Shown one piece after another: positions 11,709-22,589 of a stretch of 22,589 nucleotides of DNA (position 1 is its first letter; each line of letters starts with the position of its first letter). Where the stretch lies: assembly GCF_002105155.1 (NCBI RefSeq), contig NW_019028993.1, positions 806,001 through 828,589 on the forward strand, written 5' to 3'. The notes beneath the pieces were generated by a model. The model was not told where the DNA came from, ran no database searches, and saw only the letters and a list, made by a program, of their open reading frames with translations. This DNA comes from Lobosporangium transversale. Lineage: Eukaryota. The translations under genes were made by a program, and so were the position numbers.

Positions 11709-13904
11709 CTAATTCAAAAGCAGATGCACAGCTACTGAAGGCACACCGTTGTTCAGGACATGGATGTAGTGTGGACCTGGAGGCATCAAGTTGGCATTAG
11801 GAGGCATGGCTACGGAGTAAGTGATCTTGGTACCATCCTCACTCGACTTTGTTGCCACCAACTTGATCATTCTCTGTGACATGTGAGTGCTATGGGTCAC
11901 AAAGCCACGTCGGCCCAATATAAAGGTGATCTCGGGCTCGTACTTGTCCGTGGCCTTGATGTCGATGGTAATATCGAGCTTTTGATCATAGGTCACCATC
12001 TCTGGGATCTGGCTCACAATCTCGGGTCTGTCCAGATCAGTGGTCAGATAAGGAGGAGTGAAGGATTCAACACGATATTCAGTAGGGAAGGGGACGTTCT
12101 CATATCGGACCTCCGAGTTCTGGTTGGATCCGGCCACAAAGACAGTACCGTCGGGCAAAAGTGTAGCAACGGAGTGATACATACGTGCAATATTGCTAGG
12201 CACCCATTCTGTGAAACGCTGACCGAGAGGAGCCTCAGGATCGTAGACAACGGGAGTGTAGATTGGGTTTGAGGCACGAAGGAAACCAGCGTAGCCCTGT
12301 TGAGCACCGTTGAGGAGCATGATCTTTCCATCTGCCAGGATGACTGCATCGGACATGAGACGGGGGGTGGGCATCTGATCCATCTCCCATTGAGGGTCAT
12401 CCGCATGGAGATTGATACGACCACAAGATTGCAGAGCGTTAGCACGTGTGGACATGGCCTCGGATCCACCGCAGACCAGGATCTCGTGTTGATAGTTCTT
12501 TGCGGGATCCAGGGGCAAGAGGACATGGGATCCTGTGAGGGGATAGGAACGGGGACCACCAGGAATATCGGGCAACCGTTTGACCTCTTGTTGGGTTTGG
12601 ACATTGTAGATGACTGATTTCTGATTGGCAAAGATGTAAAGATTACCATCGGGCAAGGTGTAGACATTAGGGTACAAGTTGTTGGGCATGGCATCGATCA
12701 TGAACTGCATCAGAACAGGTTTGTAATCCAATGGTTTGGGGTAGAGTTCCCAGGTCGGGTTATTGGTCGCCTGTCGGTTGATCGCCAGGGATTCGTTGCT
12801 TCCTCCGAGGACAAAGAGATCTCCAGAGGGCAAAGTGGTGATGGAGACATACCAACGGTTACCGGTCATTTGCCATGCAGGATCTGCAGGGTTCTCAATA
12901 AAGGTGCAAGAACCATCATCGCACGGTTGCCACATTCGAAGAGATTGGAAGCCTGCCGAAGTCTCGAACGTACGGGAATTCTAACAGCCAAAAAAAAAAA
13001 AAAGTCAAGTCTAAATTAATTGGATACAAGAAATAGTATAATAAATAAATAAATAAAAATAAACAACTTACGCGAGATTCAGCACCACCAGCACTGATCA
13101 AGGTACCATTGGGTAAAAAGCCTCCACCGGAGCAGAAGGTATTTGTGGCTACGTCGACAACTCTGTAGTCATTCTTGATGAGATCATATTCGACTACATG
13201 AGCGGCTTTACCGCTGGGGAGTTTTGCAGGGTTGTTCTCGGCCTTGTCAATGATGAGCATCTTTGTGGGTGTGACAAGGGCGATGTGTTGAGCCGCTACT
13301 CCAGAACTGTTACTCACGATCTTGAAAGAGCCCTTGGGTAGGGTAGGGACGGGTTTTGGTTTTGGTTGAGTGCCATTGTCGTTGGAGTTATTATCGTTGT
13401 TGTTGTTGTTGGCTGAAGGAGCTCCATAGTTGTAACGAACACATGCACCGTTGAAACTGGCTTCTGCATCACAGCCAGCTCCGCAGGCTAAGGCAGAGTT
13501 TCCACAGTGACCATGCTATTTTTGTATTTGAATTAAAAAAGTTTTTTTTTTTTTTTTTTTTTTTTTTTGACTGGTGAGTTGGATATTGCTACTGACTATT
13601 TCAGGAACCATTAAAAAAAAAAAAAAAAAAAAAAAAACTTTTGAAGAGGACAATAGAATAGGATTGGAGAAGAGAGACAGAGAAAGAGAAGGAAAAGAAA
13701 AGAAAAGAAAGGATGAAGGGAAGGATTCAAAAAAGAAAAGTTGATTGGAGTAAAGGAATGAGTAGTGCTTACAAGACTGCAACAGGGAGTTTCCATTGGA
13801 CAGGCAAGACCGTTGTTGTATCTGCAACCAGCAGCATCAGCGGTCCAGGTCAGGGACAGGACCGAGGCCGCGACCAAGAGAGAGATGGTGCGGAATAAGA
13901 CCAT
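11709..13904 (-). CDS. Secreted copper radical oxidase (glyoxal oxidase-like, CAZy AA5) with N-terminal hevein/CBM18 chitin-binding domain; 3 exons, ~615 aa
   Basis: Exons 13904-13773, 13515-13072 and 12980-11709. Signal peptide MVLFRTISLLVAASVLSLTWTADA; CBM18-like CPMETPCCSLHGHCGNSALACGAGC; Asn/Pro linker; AA5 motifs TNTFCSGG, RWY, GGPRSYP, RMYHS, FVTHS, PPGPHYIHVLNNGVPS. Confidence 0.92.
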
Positions 13905-14778
13905 GATGAACACTCTGTGAGAAATAGAGGATTAAATAATAGAGTGAATGCGATTAGGCGGTTGGAGAAGTGGCTGTGTGGGTTGCGTCGATGTAGTTTG
14001 TCGTGAGGAAAGGAATGGAATGGAATGAATATATGCCGTGAGAGAAGAAATAAAGTAGATTGATTAGATGAATGGGATGGAATGCAAATAAATGAAAATG
14101 AATGATGATTGAATCAGTCTATGGTGTCGAGTGGATGGAAACACAGAGGAGTGAAGGAAAGAAAAGAAAAGAAAAGAAAAGAAAAGGAAAGGAAAGGAAA
14201 GGAAAAGGAAAAGGAAAAGGAAAAGGTAATGGGAAAAAAGGATGTTAAGCAAAGTGAAGATTAGATATTTATATATCTTATGCTATACATGTTTAGTTAT
14301 AAAAATATTCATCAATGTGGACCAACAAGAGACCAGCAAATGGACTAAAATGATGGAGGGATGACTATGGCGTTCTTCTTCTTTAGCTTTGAGGCGCTGC
14401 TGGTCCCACATGTTTAAACTCGGCTGAGCAACATTAAAAAGCAGACGGGACTATTTTTAACTCCTCCATTCAAACATGTCTTTATATACTTTTACTTGTT
14501 GTTATTCTTACATGTATGTATATATATATATACATGGACATGTTGTAGGGAAAAAGATCTTCGAATTTGTTCCTTTTCTTTTCCTCTGTTCTTCTAGACA
14601 TGTCCAAAAAAGAAACGCCCAAAAGACTCTCTTTCTTACTCATCATCAAAGGGTCGGTTCTTTGTGTCAAAGGATTATTTTTACTTGTAAAACAAGGAAG
14701 ATCCTTTGCCCGATCCTAGATATAGAAATGAACTGATATGCTGATTATACCGATTGACTGATTGTACTGATATGATGT

Positions 14779-14806
14779 GGCACGGGCACGGGCACGGGCA
14801 CGGGCA
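14779..14806. repeat. (GGCACG)n hexanucleotide microsatellite, ~4.7 copies
   Basis: ggcacgggcacgggcacgggcacgggca, located near the left edge of the CRN island. Confidence 0.85.
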
Positions 14807-15022
14807 TTATCCTCGATCCCCGTCATCATGACTATTTTTTTTTTTTTTTTTTTGAACCAGATTTCGTGTAGCATCAGCATCATTACTCTATACACGCCCA
14901 TTGCCTGTTCTTCAAAGGTTTCTCATGCCCCCTATTTTGTCTCCTGAACATGTTATTCTATCTTGTTCCTTGTTTATATTCTATATTCCAACTTGCAACC
15001 AGCCCATCAACATCAGCTGGAC

Positions 15023-15088
15023 ACATGTCGTTGGCGACTGTTCAGACTCCATATGATACTGTATAAACACCTGAACACTGCCACATGT
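15023..15088. repeat. Divergent palindromic element (candidate site E4)
   Basis: acatgt-cgt-tggcgactgttcag ... ctgaacactgccacatgt forms an imperfect inverted repeat. Its left part ggcgactgttcagactc matches ggcgacttttcaaattc of E1/E3 at 14 of 17 positions. Confidence 0.45.
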
Positions 15089-15601
15089 CATTGACTACTC
15101 TACGTTCCCTTAAACAATATTCTTAGGATACATCTGAACTTTTGCAAGGGATGTATTGATGCTTCGACAAACATGTAGCAATTAATGGCTATATCACAGC
15201 CCTTGGATTGTGGAAGCGCTGAAATTATGCGGAAAACGGGAACCATTTGTGTTTTTACTAGCAACAAGCGTGCTTTCAAAAAGTTTGCTCCAAAGAACAG
15301 ATCCTATATCCTTCATTGCTCAAAAGTAACAATCTTGTCTTTTCTGCACCCTAAAAGCGCCCCATAGTCCCATTGAGGCGTTCAGAGGCATTATTTGCCT
15401 CATGGCTTGAGGATTAGCAGACTTTCAGTCAAGTTTTATTGGTTTGAACATCCTGTCCATTCGAAGTTGTCTCTCTGGATGGCAGCACCTATTCAGGGCT
15501 AATCAATTCCGCTAGATACGATTAAATCAAGGGGGATTTGGAAAACCAACAGGCATCGAACAATCGCCTTAGCAAGTGAGTGAGGACCTTCTCTGTGGCG
15601 C

Positions 15602-15668
15602 GCACGGACCATGGGGGCGACTTTTCAAATTCTTTTATAGAGATGAAATCCAAAGTCGCCCCAGTTAA
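15602..15668. repeat. Palindromic cassette-boundary element E3 (GGGGCGACTTT-N27-AAAGTCGCCCC)
   Basis: Arms at 15614-15624 and 15652-15662. 15614-15668 is identical to 21170-21224, and the flank gcacggaccatgg is also similar. It lies ~95 nt past the stop codon of the module ending at 15762. Confidence 0.92.
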
Positions 15669-15761
15669 TATTTTAGCGTGTTATTAAATTTCTATGACAA
15701 GCCTTTTTATAGGATTAAGAACTATATATATTATGTATTACTGTATACTGTGACGAAAATT

Positions 15762-17165
15762 CTAAGTTGGGATATTTTTAAAAAGTTTCTCTTTGAGCTC
15801 GTCGAAGCTGACATGAAGAAGATCTTTGTAATCCTTGATTAATCCAGTGTGGTTTGCTGCACCAGGGGAACCACGCATGTAAACTATTTTAAATCCAGTT
15901 ACTGGCTCTCCATCCTTTTTGACAACAAAATGCCCATCGTCAATTATGGCGGAATGATTACCTCCAAATACTTCGTCCAAATAGCTTTCAATCTGATTTC
16001 TGCCGTCGGGACCTCTCTTATCAAAAGCGTTCTGGATTTGCTTAATTTGTTTCTTCTCGTGTTCTTGGAAATTACTTATGGACACCTGGATAAACATTGT
16101 GTCGAGTATGAAATCAAAGCGAGGATAAGTCGAATGACAATGGCTCAGTACATGTCCATAGCCACGTCCAAGAGAAGTCATGCCTTGATGGATTGTCCCA
16201 TGATCCTTAAAGTCCACTATAATCTCCGTTGGATTCACGCCGATAAGGTTTGTTGCTTTGAGAACGATTGGCTTGGTTAAAGTCAAAAGCCGGACTAGCA
16301 GTGCCAACTCGAAATCATCTCCACTCATCTCTCCAAGAATAACTCCCCTCAGGATATGCTCATGATGAGGCATATTTGTAAACGCCTGAAAGAGTGCTTT
16401 CTGCGCTGGGAGGCACAAGACATAGTTTATGGCTCCGCGGTTCTTGTTGAGACGATAAATAAGCCCTAGGTCACGGAAATCCCATTCAAAATCACTACTC
16501 TGCGAGTTGTTGCCAAGGAAGACTGTTGCAAGGCTTTTAGCGAACTTCTTCTTCGATTCATCGCTGCAAGATCTGTAGTACGTCCAAACTACAGTGTGAA
16601 ACTCGCCTGTTCTCTCAGTTACATACGAATCAATGCTATTTCTTGTGAGTGGTCTTTCCTCAATTGACCGGATGAGGAACATAAACTCTCGTGGCACACG
16701 GTTTGTAATCCTCATTATATCCTGGACAATATCGGGTTGGTTCAGGTGGACCTCCAACCATTTTGAAAACACTGTCTCGGATAGTGGGCCAACAAAGTAC
16801 AATAAGGTATTTCGAAGACTGCCTGGCATAATCTCCAATTCATATTTGGCATGGGCTGTTCCTGTAAATATCGCTCTAGATCCTTTGGATTCAGCTTCCC
16901 ATCGAGTGAGATCCTTTAGATGGTTCAAGAACAGGTATTTATCTGGCACGTACGGCTCTTTTTGGAATAACTTTCCATGTTCGTCGATAATGAATAGTGT
17001 TTTGCGCTCCTTCTGTTTGAATAGGTCGAATAATGCGCGACCAGCCGCAATTGAGCAATCTATAACTTCAGAAGCGTCGAGGAGACTTTCCAGATCAGAT
17101 GCCGTCAAGATATCCCTGTTGAGAGCGAAGAAGATCCTTAACAGTGCCTTTGCCGATTTTATTTC
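15762..17165 (-). pseudogene. CRN C-terminal module C: 5'-truncated P-loop NTPase plus REase-like domain (uninterrupted ~467-aa frame, no Walker A, no own start or header)
   Basis: EIKSAKALLRIFFALNRDILTASDLE...LFIIDEHGKLF (Walker B)...FTGTAHAKYE...TNRVPRE...GDDFE...YPRFDFILDTMFIQVSISNF...HVSFDELKEKLF. Clearly paralogous to module A. Confidence 0.8.
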
Positions 17166-18403
17166 CTAGAGCTTGACGAGTAATTGGTTGGAATATCGGT
17201 TCAATTTTACTATAACAGTTCTTCAAAGTCTCCAAGAATTGTTCTTTGCGATCCTCCTCATAATCCTTTAGTCGTTGCTTAATCCCATTAGCCGCGAGCT
17301 CAATGCCTTCAATGTCGTCGCCAAAAAAAAATATTGAATTCCCGTGGCACACATCCGGTGGCTTTTTGAATCTCGCCTCGTAGCTCATTCAATTGTTGGC
17401 GGGCTGTTGGGTGGACCTTATTTATGATCACATCCAGTAGCTTATTGAAAATATCAGGCGACAGTGGACCAACATACTCGACATAGTGTGGTGCGTCTCT
17501 GAGAATGAGCTTTGCAAATCTTACCGTACTGCTAAACACTACTCTCGCATTATTTGAATTGTTCCAAGAGTTGAAAGTCTTTAGAGGCCATAAAACTGGG
17601 AACCTGTCGGGCGCAGACTTACTATTTTTCTGGAAATAATGCACCATGCTCATCCACGACAAATAATGCCTTCTGACTTCTTGACTGGAGTAGGTCACCC
17701 AAGATACTGCTGGCGCTACTCACAAAAAGATTTTCCGATGTTTCAATTTCGACCATTTCCTCGAGCTCTGAGGCTGTCAAAGTATCTTTGTTGTTGGATA
17801 AGAAGAGTTGACAGATCAGTCGTGATGCGTCAGTATTAGTGTCACAATTGTTAAGTTGATTAGCATCCGCAATATAAAGCACTGGCCAACCATGTGCATA
17901 TGCCTTGGCCGCAAGGAACCATGAAATGTATGATTTGCCGACGCCCATTGGACCGTAAACATTTCTTGACAGACGACTCACTGTTCTCGAGTTCATTCCA
18001 TAGCTTCATCATCTATTCAGACATAAAAAAACTCGCGACCTTGATAGCCTCTCGCAAAGAATATTGGGTTCTGACCAAGATCCATTGAAGTAATTCGATT
18101 CCCAGCCTGCACCATCAAAAGCGATTGGAACTCGGCGCGAGGTTCTGGTGCACACTTGTTATTTTCGCTCAAATTCAGTATATGTTGGGGTAAAACTACG
18201 AGTTCGCCATCGACTGCAATATATCGCTTCAAGGAACGACAGCGCTTCGTAAGGTGCTCTTTGAGCATATAAGAATAGCGAGACTGACGTGAGTATGGAA
18301 TAAATAAATTTTCTCAAGAATCATCAAAACTATGAATGGAATAAACTCACTTTCTAAATCTTCGTCTTCTGTGTCTTCTAGGCTCCTTTGGGACTTCTTG
18401 GGG
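17166..18403 (-). pseudogene. CRN C-terminal module B: decayed and 3'-truncated NTPase module with its own acceptor and micro-exon
   Basis: Micro-exon 18403-18351 (tag|...|gtgagt), main exon from ~18258. Homology to module A runs across ORFs 18017-18268, 17622-17996, 17309-17698 and 17095-17388 (GPMGVGKS, FVVDEHG, VGPLS, TGCVPRE), with several frameshifts and a TAG at 18015-18013 where Gln is expected. Confidence 0.8.
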
Positions 18404-18550
18404 CTATTTAAAATCCACGCAATAAACTAACAAGAGGATAGTTAGATAGGAGGCTTTGATAAAAGTACTTGTATGCGATAGAGCAGTGGGGAGCCGAAAT
18501 AAGCTCAAGCAAAAAGCCTCGCGAGAGGACAGTGGAGAGTCAGAGTATAC

Positions 18551-18593
18551 GCACGCACCATGGAGGCGACTTTACAAATTCTTTTTACAGATC
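18551..18593. repeat. Half-site E2a of the boundary element
   Basis: gcacgcaccatggaggcgactttacaaattctttttacagat aligns with the left half of E1/E3 (gcacggaccatgggggcgacttttcaaattcttttatagagat). It precedes module B in transcript orientation. Confidence 0.85.
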
Positions 18594-18705
18594 AAACTGT
18601 GCATTTAACAATTAAGCACCATTTACCACTATGCCTACTACCGCCCTCTGAATAATTCTCTACAAATAGCAAGACTGGATATTTTTGGCTATTCTAGAAT
18701 GATTT

Positions 18706-18750
18706 GGGCGATCTAAAAGTCCCATAAATATAAACAGATCTAAAGTCGTC
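18706..18750. repeat. Degenerate site E2b carrying the right arm of the boundary element
   Basis: gggcgatct...agatctaaagtcgtc versus gggcgactt...aaatccaaagtcgcc in E1, with similar overall length. It lies ~140 nt past the module A stop. Confidence 0.55.
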
Positions 18751-18891
18751 AAGCCGCATCTGCGTATTTATCTCAATCTGGTCTCTCATCTCATCTACAA
18801 CCCGACGCGGCACCCTTTGATAGGATGACGCTTAAAGTTAGAAGATGAATGGAGTAGAAGCTTCCTTTATTGATAACACTATCCAACACTA

Positions 18892-20920
18892 TCAAACAAT
18901 GTTTGCAAAGAATAGGCTTTTGAGGTCGTTGAAGCTTACATGTTCTACATCTGGCAACTCTGTAACGAGCTGGCGGTGATTCCCTAGGTTAATATCTCTA
19001 CCACAAATGTAGACGATTCGGAATCCAGGAAACAACTTCATCAATACCTGTTGTCGGGTCTTTTTTTGGTGACAATAAATCCATCCTTTCCAAAATCAGC
19101 TCTATGCTTTCCACCATACATTTCATCCAAGTAACACTCAATCTGATTCCTATCATTATACACCACTTTGGGTGTCTTGTACGGTCGCTTAAATGCTTTC
19201 CTTAAATCACTTGAATCTCTGTTATGCACTCCAAACTCGCTGACAGACACCTGGATGAATATTGGTCCAACCATAAAGTCAAATCGAGGATATCCTGGAT
19301 AGCCACGGGCCAAGAATTTATCTTTTCCCGGGCCAAGAGAATGTCGTTGCCTGCTTATAACTCGGTAGTCATCGAAGTCCAACACGATCGAGCCCTTAGG
19401 ATCACCAACGAGGTTCGTTGTAGGGAGCACTATTGGCCTAATACTAGTGCAAATAAATGCATGAAAAATTGCTTGCTCAAATTCATTTCCACTGAACCTA
19501 TTAGCCTTGAGCCGATTCTTTAGATCTTCTGGCATTCCCATTGTCTTGAACTGATCCAAAAGTGCTCTGAAGGCTGTATTGCATAAAGGGCGGAATAAAA
19601 TTACTCCATCTCTCCTTAGACGGAACAAAAGACCCAGATCTATGAAATCCCACTTGAACTCTCCTTCGACAGAACCATGTAAGAACGCCGAGGCAAGGCC
19701 ATTATAAAAATTTGTACGGGTCGTCTCGGATTTTTCGATGCTTTTGTAGTAGTTCTGGATGTTGTGAGAAAAATCCAACCTTCGGCAGTCTTCAAACTTC
19801 TCGAATGCCTCCTTAATGGGTAACTCTGGATTCTCTTCAATATAGGTTGACAAGTTCATCAGCTCTCGTGGTACAAGGTTCGTGATACTCCGTATATCCT
19901 CGTAGTCCGTGGATTGGAGATTGGGAGTATGCTTCAACAGATTCTTGAAAGCGTCATCCAACAAAGGTCCCACGAATACCACTGTTTTAAAGTCCTCCTT
20001 AAAGCTCGATTCCATGATCTCCAATTCGAATTTTGCATGCGCTGTGCCAGTGAGAATCAAACGAGATCCAGCCAAGTCTTCAGTCCAACTGGAAAGGTCC
20101 ATCAGAGGTTTTAAAGATTTAAATTTTTCTGGTACTGGTTTGTCGAATCTGAAGAGTTTCCCATGTTCGTCAATAATAGTTAGAGTCTTCCGTTCCTTCT
20201 GCATGAGCATGTTAAAAACGCGTATGATAGCAGTATTCCATATGCCACCTTGAACACCATAGCCGGATACAAGCGTCTCCAGTTCGGCAGCAGTTAAAAC
20301 ATCCTTGTTCATCACAAGGAAACGCTCGATCACTTCCATATATGAGTCCGCTTTCTCACTAGTATCCAAAGTACCCGCATCTGATATGTAGAGGGTAAGC
20401 CATCCTTCAGCATATGCTCTTGCTGTCAAAAAATAGGAGAGAAAGCTCTTGCCAATACCCATTGGACCAGACAAGACTCGTCTGTATACGCACCTTTGTT
20501 CTTCTTCCATCTCGTTCCAAAGCTCCAGCATTTGGTGCGTGACGAGAATTTCAGAGACTCTATAACCCTTTGGGACTTGACCCAGGGATGGTATATCGAC
20601 CCAACTACCAGCCTTCAGATCGTCTTTGAGATGTTCAAACTCATTACGTGGTTTTGGAAGGTATCTAGAATCCTCTAGCATTGCGATCCAAGAGGGTGGT
20701 AACGTGACCATTTTGCCATCAGAAGCCCTGTATTCTCTCCACCCTTCCTCAATGCGATCTTCTTTGAAGGTGAAATATACTGTGGATCTAATTATGATAT
20801 CGTACACATACACAGTTGGTTAGTACCATAACATAAGCAGTCATCAAGTCAATCTATTAAACAGCAAAAAACAAATTATTACCTTCGTCCATTTTTCTCT
20901 TGAGAATCTGTTCCGATGCT
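18892..20920 (-). CDS. CRN C-terminal module A: P-loop NTPase plus REase-like domain, adjacent to the header exon; nearly intact, with frameshifts at both ends
   Basis: Micro-exon 20920-20883, main exon from 20787. Walker A SGPMGIGKS, Walker B IIDEHGKLF, TGTAHAKFE, TNLVPREL, GNEFE, YPRFDFMVGPIFIQVSVSEF. After a frameshift near 19030-19067 the homologous tail PGFRIVYICG...HVSFNDLKSLFFANIV* ends at 18892. Confidence 0.8.
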
Positions 20921-21155
20921 CTAGAAAGATAAGAGAGCGCGCAATGGCAGAAATGTTAGCATTTTGATCAGATCAAAGAATATATTGCTGTCAATGAGAT
21001 ATGAACGCCAGCTAATGGAGAGTCAGAGCATGTGTGCGAAACGCGAAACAGATTCAATCAGAAAAACTAACAAATGCATCAATGTAAAAGGTCAAATAAA
21101 AATAAAAATAAAAATGAAAACTGTGTTCTCAGACAACAGTGAGAGTCTGAGATGT

Positions 21156-21224
21156 GCACGGAGCATGGAGGGGCGACTTTTCAAATTCTTTTATAGAGAT
21201 GAAATCCAAAGTCGCCCCAGTTAA
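21156..21224. repeat. Palindromic cassette-boundary element E1, inside the first intron of the CRN gene
   Basis: Arms at 21170-21180 and 21208-21218. It sits between the header donor (21346) and the module A acceptor (20921). Confidence 0.92.
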
Positions 21225-21346
21225 ATAGTGTTGCCGAGATTCATCTCAACAACATAAAAAAGGGATAGATACACGTGACCGTGATGAGATAGCTTCATCA
21301 ATTGAACAATTGAAATATCATCAGTCCATCAAGAGCTAATACATAC

Positions 21347-21781
21347 CTCGCTGCGGTGGCTTGACAAAAACATGGATCGTTTTCCTTGGAAGTTCAGAAT
21401 TAAATATCTCCCAAAGCTCCATTGACGCGACTGAAGAGCCTCTTTTGACTCGATTTCTGACTCAACGACGATCTTGCCTTTGTCAGGGATGGAAACTTTA
21501 TAGAGGGTGAGGTCCTTGGGCTTAACGCTTGGATCCACAGTAATATTGGGATAGATTGCTTGCTTGAGTTCATCGACAGAACTATTGGAAAGAATCTTTA
21601 CAGAAAAACATGAAGCTTCTCCATCAACAATACAATAAATCTGTAGGCTGGTTGGTTCGAGGATTTCAGGGTCATTGGTGCTTGAAGACTCTTCCTTCGC
21701 TTCCCCTTTTCTTTCTTCTTTCCTTTCATACGGTTTAGTTCGAGGTGATAGGCATCGTGGTGATGTTCTGTCGCTTCCCAT
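21347..21781 (-). CDS. Crinkler (CRN) effector N-terminal ubiquitin-like header exon
   Basis: LQIYCIVDGEASCFSVKILSNSSVDELKQAI...DLTLYKV (LFLAK-equivalent). In a shifted frame from ~21435 it reads VASMELWEIFNSELPRKTIHVFVKPPQR (HVLVxxP motif), followed directly by the donor gtatgt at 21346. Confidence 0.88.
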
Positions 21782-22589
21782 TGTGATTTCAAAAACAAGG
21801 CGTAAATGGACGGAGGACAGAAAATAGGGAAAGGTTGATAAAAATGCTAAAGGATGATAATTCAGTAGCAGGATGGTTCAAAATTGTCTAGAGATGAAGT
21901 TGAGGGAGGAAAAGAAAAAAAGAAAAAAAGAAAAAAAAAAAGGAAAGGAAAGGAAAGGAAAGGCAATGAATGAAGGCTTGGAATAAATAAAAGAGCAAAA
22001 TTGATGGGAGCAAAACTGGGGGAAATAAGAAAAAAGTGAAAAGAGGATAAAGGAAGAAAAGGAAGAGGAGAGTGCAAAAATGAAGTGAAGCAAGTTAAAG
22101 AAAGGAGCGACAATTGATAAATCTGTTCCTTTATTTCAAGGTTGGGCTATGCTGTGTGTGTGTGAGAAATTTTTTTTTTCTTGTTGCACAAGACGCCATG
22201 CGATTAAAGATTGAATTGGCCCCCAAGTGTGACGTAACATGTATCATTTAAATACACAAACACTATTCATTCTCTTTAACTCTCTTGTTTTAACCACACA
22301 ATCGAAAGTATGCACACATTCACCCTACATTCATCCCACTATGTACAAGTCAAATACTCCCTCATTCCAAGAACAAGAAGCTGTTACTGATATTGTAAGT
22401 GTTCAAACGCGAATAATAATTTTTTTGTATCAGTGCTTTCTTGGTGATATCTAAGCAAAATTATGCTTTAGAGAAAACCCTTGACGCGTCAAACTTTAGG
22501 AAGGATGGGGAGAATGACAGCAAAGAAAGAAAAGATGGCAATGAAGAAAAAGAGGAGGATGATCAAGTAGATATCCCAGCAATTATATT

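Follow-up and report, generated by a model that had tools for sequence, protein, structure and literature searches.

We analysed a 22,589-nucleotide stretch of the genome of Lobosporangium transversale (NCBI RefSeq assembly GCF_002105155.1, contig NW_019028993.1, positions 806,001 to 828,589 of the forward strand), called the window below. It contains a Crinkler (CRN) gene array whose modules are separated by copies of a 55-bp palindromic DNA site. Read along the minus strand, the array comprises a header exon, an intron holding a first copy of the site (site 1), a headerless cargo (module A), a half-site, a broken fusion of two further modules (B/C), a second intact copy (site 3) and a conserved tail. 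A site precedes every module start in the window: a full one before A, half of one before B and a full one before the tail. The features are as follows, in window positions.

21782 to 22589, no strand assigned: header upstream region, multi-copy to the window end; the outer end of the element lies beyond the window.
21347 to 21781, minus strand: Crinkler header exon, ubiquitin-like (Pfam PF20147, E 1.4e-12), ending in HVFVKPP (HVLVxxP-like) with a phase-1 GT donor.
20921 to 21346, minus strand: header intron holding site 1, spliced out in two contigs of sequencing run X7.
21229 to 21254, minus strand: second hairpin of 11 pairs including G-U pairs, on the header side of site 1 and absent beside site 3 in the window.
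21170 to 21224: site 1, the 55-bp element within the header intron, with arms at 21170-21180 and 21208-21218 and a 27-bp spacer.
18892 to 20920, minus strand: module A, a headerless cargo made of a short exon, an intron (about 20788-20883) and a long exon, encoding a P-loop nucleoside triphosphatase (NTPase) and a likely restriction-endonuclease-fold domain.
18559 to 18608, same orientation as sites 1 and 3: half-site ahead of module B, which keeps most of the spacer and, with 2 mismatches, the module-side arm; the header-side arm is absent.
17170 to 18430, minus strand: module B, a paralogous cargo truncated to its 5′ part and interrupted by stops and by frame breaks near 18010, 17625 and 17310.
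15762 to 17165, minus strand: module C, the 467 codons at the 3′ end of a third type of cargo, 84% to proteins P0024/P0031, lacking a start and Walker A.
15614 to 15668: site 3, identical to site 1, with arms at 15614-15624 and 15652-15662, lying 94 bp past the module C stop and ahead of the tail.
15030 to 15613, no strand assigned: conserved multi-copy tail of about 580 bp, with a module-like start and no protein match.
15019 to 15058, minus strand: weak, degenerate match to the module-side half-site, located where the multi-copy region ends; a hint only.
14240 to 15061, no strand assigned: unique flank, taken as the single-copy standard (a single contig of depth 116.9 in run X1; 14240-14820 at 9.9 in run X3).

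The proteins of the window display the ubiquitin-like CRN header, the HVLVxxP-like header end and the P-loop NTPase cargo of the CR family, and variants of the HVLVxxP-like motif also close the header in 20 L. transversale proteins. The module A protein is 100% identical to an L. transversale protein and has 129 relatives in the search; of the 120 listed, those with a name are fungal, most of them from Mortierellaceae and some from Glomeromycota and Endogonales. Walker A is invariant among these relatives (G82 in 82/82, K88 in 81/81), as is D181 of Walker B (83/83). The model of the NTPase reached a mean confidence (pLDDT) of 92.8 and matched AAA+/STAND/DAP3 NTPases in Foldseek (best E 1.9e-7). 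The C-terminal domain type was modelled from the C-type protein P0127 (pLDDT 93.3). Its best VIA-align Z score was 5.4, which is below 8 (root-mean-square deviation 4.4, 120 aligned), most of the listed rows being PD-(D/E)xK-type nucleases; Foldseek returned nothing at E<=0.001 for this domain. Conserved C-terminal residues in the family are E412 (72/79), D478 (71/76), Q487 (74/76) and S489 (75/78). The C-terminal domain of module A is likely a restriction-endonuclease fold, as this weak resemblance of the model suggests. Module A would belong to the NTPase-plus-restriction-endonuclease (REase) class of CR proteins described in a review (PMC5289972).

Direct comparison of the two 55-mers confirmed the core of the original prediction, namely two identical copies in direct orientation with perfect 11-bp inverted arms around a 27-bp spacer. 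Their starts are 5,556 bp apart, and site 1 begins 122 bp past the header donor. The two arms and the spacer make up a palindrome of 49 bp, which is followed by the 6 bp AGTTAA. The chance expectation for such a repeat within the window is, roughly, 1e-23. Identity ends sharply, with no matching base further left and none right of base 55; the exact copies sit in otherwise unalignable neighbourhoods. The similarity of the flanks had been said to drop off quickly; this holds for identity, which stops at once, whereas gapped similarity still extends about 25 bp on the module side. The divergence claimed for the intervening modules was borne out as well, A and C being about 41% alike in local alignment. 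When folded as RNA, the 55-mer gave z values of -5.4 and -4.6 on the two strands (-4.6 on the sense strand), with none of 200 shuffles as good on either; as a folded DNA strand it reached about -13 kcal/mol.

The half-site is a third copy that the original prediction had not listed, and retains one arm and about 23 bp more. When both strands of the window were scanned with the three half-sites as queries, these three places scored 71-74 (the half-site 71) against a background maximum of 24.7. The degenerate match at 15019-15058 scored 24.5, a value that 2 of 208 background stretches reached, as did 2 of 300 shuffles. TTAA stands at the header-side edge of all three copies, half-site included (15663-15668, 21219-21224 and 18605-18608).

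The position of site 1 was then compared with the points at which headers and cargos change partners in the genome. The sample consisted of 20 L. transversale header-bearing proteins returned by searches and is not a census. Nine of the 20 continue into an A/C-type first exon behind headers that are 38-100% alike; six of these are in frame and three frame-shifted, and P0136 has a partly shifted header. Six others run into three other cargo types, and five have no cargo. Module A is identical at 605/605 positions in P0124 and P0001, while the header of P0124 is 46-47% identical to the window-type header (P0129). Likewise, the C-type cargos of P0128 and P0130 agree at 618/628 positions behind headers that are 54% alike. 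In each protein the change from header to cargo falls at the end of the header exon, the position of the site-bearing intron in the window. Because the same cargo stands behind unlike headers and the break lies at the header exon end, sequence comparison places the header-cargo exchange point in the intron that holds the site.

This arrangement recalls the Crinklers of Phytophthora, for which header-cargo recombination at HVLVVVP has been published (PMC3726527, PMC5289972). Both show a ubiquitin-like header with an HVLVxxP-like end, a cargo with an NTPase part and, probably here, an REase-like part, tandem copies and pseudogenes, and in both similar headers are found with unlike cargos and the reverse. 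They differ in that the window has an intronic palindromic site, repeated before headerless modules and the tail, which does not appear in Phytophthora Crinklers as described in the accessible text of these two papers. The same text offers only ectopic recombination or Helitrons as hypotheses for Crinkler mixing (PMC3726527, PMC5289972). The literature searched, which comprised neither Zhang et al. 2016 nor subscription papers, held no report of a DNA site or of headerless cassette arrays, and the available part of PMC13465315 mentions neither Mortierellaceae nor Crinklers.

Copy numbers were estimated from sequencing runs. Seven of the eight listed runs hold at least half of the region's words (four studies, one possibly the window's own source). 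Depth was expressed as the ratio of single contigs to the unique flank, since summed depth is no copy number. Contigs of module A stood at 7.1-8.1 times the unique flank in X1 and 7.3-7.5 times in X3, those of module B at 7.0-8.3 times in X1 and 6.9-7.4 times in X3, and those of module C at 8.7 times in X1 and 9.9-16.3 times in X3, where paralogues add to the value. A single X1 contig that runs from the end of A through the half-site into the start of the B flank lay at 8.1 times. These depths suggest joint copying of A, the half-site and the broken B/C, giving about 7-8 near-identical copies, in agreement with the annotation, in which module A appears under at least six listed accessions of one locus-tag series on several contigs. 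The header intron, the site flank and the tail are more abundant: in X3, single contigs of the tail reached 35-37 times the unique flank, a header-intron variant 29 times and the header-side flank of the site 34 times, that is roughly 30 copies by contig depth. A recent integration that duplicated a unique site, as proposed at first, is too narrow a description of a site whose flanks stand at about 30 times unique-flank depth. No convincing long-range inverted repeat was found between the tail edge and the right end of the window (best 8 bp). From run X8, which has the same species label, one repeat fragment aligned, and the element and the unique flank found no match at 98% likeness, as in a diverged strain or with a wrong label.

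The run contigs also bear on the integrity of the modules. The frame break in the header near 21434 is missing from the annotated P0129/P0130 and from part of the contig depth, and those in module A near 19030 and 19061 are absent from the contigs of all four runs compared and from annotated proteins. These three breaks are therefore probably errors in the window sequence. By contrast, the breaks of module B are reproduced by X1 contigs (0 differences over 17869-18279), and so module B is truly broken. Since module C begins in the middle of the NTPase, B and C are fused out of register, and an X7 contig (17093-17423, depth 8) covers their junction; the three-module view of the original prediction is adjusted accordingly, 'module C' being the 3′ part of a module fused to the broken B. 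None of the nine open reading frames (ORFs) of B, C and the tail is present as an exact sequence in the protein collection. A splice-ready exon considered in the tail was dropped: it has no protein match, and run contigs differ from the window at its acceptor. Single-base indels relative to the run contigs are numerous at 18500-22420, suggesting low consensus quality toward the right end of the window.

We considered whether the duplicated site might be an assembly artefact arising from a collapsed repeat family. Many single-base differences of this kind run from about 18500 to the window end, and no listed contig crosses a whole site with both flanks. Such contigs are built on 31-letter words; they cannot phase across an identical 55-bp repeat, and an excised allele would create no new 31-letter word. 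On the other side, X7 contigs continue from each module-side flank into the site (15412-15631 and 20919-21191), the A end, half-site and B start are joined within one contig in X1 (18518-19311) and in X2 (18519-19311), and independent gene annotations display the same mixing of headers and cargos. An artefact is accordingly most improbable.

Other contigs extend the picture beyond the window. Contigs of single-copy depth match the site up to 15635 (X1, X3) or 15656 (X1, X2, X3) and then the header donor (21339/21342), with unaligned letters between. These joints looked like excised alleles, but we regard them as diverged paralogues, given the unaligned letters between and the A-like exons that one such contig also carries. 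In addition, a B-like start is linked to a site-1-type arm (23 letters) in an X7 contig, and an A-type flank to a site-3-type flank in contigs at about 5-7 times. This indirect evidence, from diverged contigs with a site match plus header donor and from the X7 and 5-7-fold joints, suggests that other shuffled loci hold the site as well.

Run X7 is, as a guess supported by its spliced joints, an RNA run. Two of its contigs join 21347 to 20918 (CT..AC ends, 3 letters between), and the next intron is taken out by another joint. It follows that a header of this type is spliced across the site to an A-type exon. Since the site lies in an intron and its sense strand folds with z -4.6, it could be an RNA structure that controls splicing or the choice of 3′ end, connecting the header to alternative modules in an array produced by ordinary tandem duplication. 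Three further X7 contigs, with loose ends at 21347, join the header end to a different first exon, as such a function would have it. The same function would leave unexplained why identical cargo stands behind unrelated headers at other loci; moreover, no header-to-B or header-to-tail joint is listed for X7, and the two Rfam matches of the site are both far under the gathering score. We judge a role confined to RNA very improbable.

We give about even credence to the proposal that the 55-bp palindrome is a dedicated cassette junction recognised by a putative enzyme, integron-like in logic without being an integron. It is favoured because the site island is the only DNA common to the starts of A, B and the tail, because its inverted repeat is perfect and because the layout of the array fits. 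Exchange between two sites would release a promoterless cassette or a block of cassettes, probably as a circle, and exchange at the header-proximal site would place a cassette behind a new promoter and header. New cassettes would enter beside the header, and older ones, pushed outward, would lose the header and decay as B/C may have done. The intron would hide the scar and the common phase-1 junction would preserve the frame. The enzyme could, speculatively, be a trans-acting tyrosine recombinase or an HUH/Rep transposase acting on a folded single strand; alternatively, and equally speculatively, the NTPase-nuclease of the cargo might itself cut the site, host repair finishing the swap.

Several observations weigh against such an enzyme. 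No recombinase or transposase gene was found among the scanned ORFs of the window, the multi-copy region running past the window end. The spacer length and the motifs are unlike those of loxP-type or attC sites. The half-site lacks the header-side arm and the match of one diverged contig stops at 15635, short of that arm; the palindrome is therefore not kept in every copy. The header-side and C-side junctions of the window are both unbridged by the listed contigs, and in X3 the sequence left of 15677 differs and resembles the header-side flank of site 1, so that the junction of C with the site is without independent confirmation. Furthermore, P0129 and P0130 share identical headers and first cargo exons and then differ in the cargo body, which puts a switch inside coding sequence; the window C is patchy relative to P0024 (60-100% identity per 40-residue block), and headers look mosaic. 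These three observations indicate that homologous recombination is active in the family, and it could also homogenise the site.

The site may thus be a passive homology anchor. Cargos would then move, without a dedicated enzyme, by ectopic gene conversion or unequal crossing-over among some 30 dispersed copies; the site, the shared first exons and the tail would provide flanking homology, the hairpin might add fragility and the identity would reflect recent homogenisation. The crossovers within coding sequence, the mosaic cargos and headers and the dispensable arm of the half-site are expected under this explanation, and so is the abundance of header intron, site flank and tail in X3 (at about 29-37 times unique-flank depth). 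In Phytophthora sojae, CRN genes have been reported to undergo ectopic 'fragment recombination' (PMC3726527). The passive anchor meets two difficulties. Only 55-80 bp around the site are common to A, B and the tail, and an anchor of this sort leaves unexplained the perfect 11-bp inverted repeat and its retention in diverged single-copy contigs. Homology of 55-80 bp is short for efficient homologous exchange. We regard the passive anchor as a plausible competitor that falls short of even credence.

Silent-cassette gene conversion, as at vlsE, VSG and yeast MAT, copies silent modules behind an expression site through conserved flanks. The array differs from these systems in having many expression sites, in that whole multi-exon cargos are swapped and in that the flank is a short palindrome.

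The dedicated junction was further compared with known recombination systems. The boxes of attC sites have the consensus GTTRRRY. Here one GTTRRRY is found at site 1, one in the opposite sense at the half-site and none at site 3, so that there is no consistent R″/R′ pair; the palindrome spans 49 bp. Described attC sites are 57-142 nt long (PMC2727003). Bacterial integrons as presented in that paper resemble the array in having one expression platform followed by promoterless cassettes, with an imperfect palindrome about 50-60 bp long delimiting each, in expressing the proximal cassette while distal ones are silent, and in having conserved segments that flank a variable array (PMC2727003). By analogy, the headerless modules and the header spliced to an A-type exon in the presumed RNA of X7 would correspond to promoterless cassettes expressed from a platform. 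Unlike integrons, the scanned window ORFs include no integrase, expression goes through splicing to a coding exon and the host is a eukaryote; the distinction between attI and attC is also lacking, proximal site 1 being the same as distal site 3.

The original prediction had likened the site to a simple directional target of the loxP type. The 11-bp arms fall within the 11-13 bp of loxP/FRT-type sites, whose spacers measure 6-8 bp (PMC3212892); with a spacer of 27 bp here and one arm missing from the copy before B, this likeness was abandoned. What stands of the site as a recombination point is that it is located where headers and cargos swap genome-wide and that A-B/C forms a multi-copy unit. 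Cryptons, which are listed for Rhizopus, share with the array direct-repeat flanks and a proposed circular intermediate (PMC3212892). They have direct repeats of 4-6 bp instead of 55 bp, and the block described here encodes only CR cargo, with no recombinase inside the unit.

Rolling-circle transposition was evaluated in the same way. The site could be the joined 3′ and 5′ ends of head-to-tail Helitron2-like elements, the modules being non-autonomous units inserting side by side; an asymmetric terminal inverted repeat 20-40 bp from one end would stand beside the repeat that starts the next element. Helitron2/Helentron elements do have asymmetric inverted repeats giving arm-spacer-arm when joined, as well as tandem copies and gene capture (PMC5148889). 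The geometry matches Fusarium Helitron2-like elements, in which about 20-40 bp separate the 3′ inverted repeat from the end and for which joined ends and tandem copies have been reported (PMC5148889). A half-site of one arm plus about 23 bp, and the hairpin that lies beside site 1 toward the header and is followed 12 nt downstream by CTGG, would also suit such ends, and Helitron-linked, tail-to-head CRN copies have been reviewed for P. infestans (PMC5289972). However, no Rep-helicase gene occurs among the scanned window ORFs, the terminal hairpin is present only beside site 1, CTGG is followed by G instead of a target T, and an intact end junction within the header intron would make the header itself a second element. 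We consider this origin improbable. Helitron1 elements are likewise a poor match: they combine a hairpin, a CTRR end and insertion between A and T, whereas sites 1 and 3 have CTGG then G and site 3 lacks the hairpin.

Collections of contigs and plasmids were also scanned. The arm pattern gave 0 loci in genome contigs and no match in plasmids. In viral contigs it gave 11 loci and then 1, and apart from the pattern itself none of them matched the cargo family or the flanks. Scanning for loci by protein turned up no relative either, with 0/115 candidate stretches in viral contigs and 0/22 in prokaryote genome contigs. Ten loci in metagenome contigs matched the arm pattern and were rejected as look-alikes: the 11-bp match is built into the query, the spacers differ, and these bacterial-looking doublets have no blastn or tblastn match to the window. 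We take them to be REP-like, and judge it coincidental that their outer arms equal the fungal arm. At position 3001, seven GC-rich viral contigs (L011, L012, L013, L015, L018, L019 and L020) have in common a conserved palindromic element, about 45-47 bp long, one flank of which is conserved too. Another viral contig, the AT-rich, 114-kb L017, carries at 3001-3543 two near-identical units 500 bp apart with tandem 10-bp repeats.

The surroundings of the array are of other kinds. At its right end, within the multi-copy region, a possible divergent gene start lies at 22341-22589 on the plus strand, with an ATG at 22341, a GT donor near 22395 and an acidic frame that stays open as far as the window end. 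For its part at 22435-22587 (51 codons), searches gave no relative (7 candidates, none at E<=1) and no Pfam family. On the other side, about 1.1 kb from the tail edge, is a glyoxal/galactose-oxidase-like gene (11709-13910, minus strand; Pfam PF07250 and PF09118). Housekeeping genes occupy 3700-11442, namely those for a DHHC palmitoyltransferase, a Dsc3-like protein and a ubiquitin-conjugating enzyme.

The intronic palindrome is a real and unusual feature: it marks the point of exchange in a family of Crinkler cassettes that is being actively amplified and shuffled. Being a discrete short DNA site at the Crinkler junction, it makes the swapping mechanism directly testable by a reporter in a culturable soil fungus. 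Even if read as a passive anchor, it defines what is shuffled as a unit among the effector genes of an early-diverging fungus, and where that unit ends. Should an enzyme act on it, cassette capture of the type described for bacteria would take place in a eukaryote, and the site might become a recombination tool whose scar is spliced out. Taken further, there may be a eukaryotic integron-like system in which dozens of Crinkler platforms, each with a promoter, a header exon and an intronic site, capture, stack and exchange headerless NTPase-nuclease cassettes by an enzyme acting at the folded palindrome, with splicing erasing the scar; this we put forward tentatively and with more doubt than belief. 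If true, such a system would supply the mechanism that has been missing for the HVLVxxP recombination hot spot of Crinklers, possibly driven by the transposon-derived ATPase-nuclease of the cargo.

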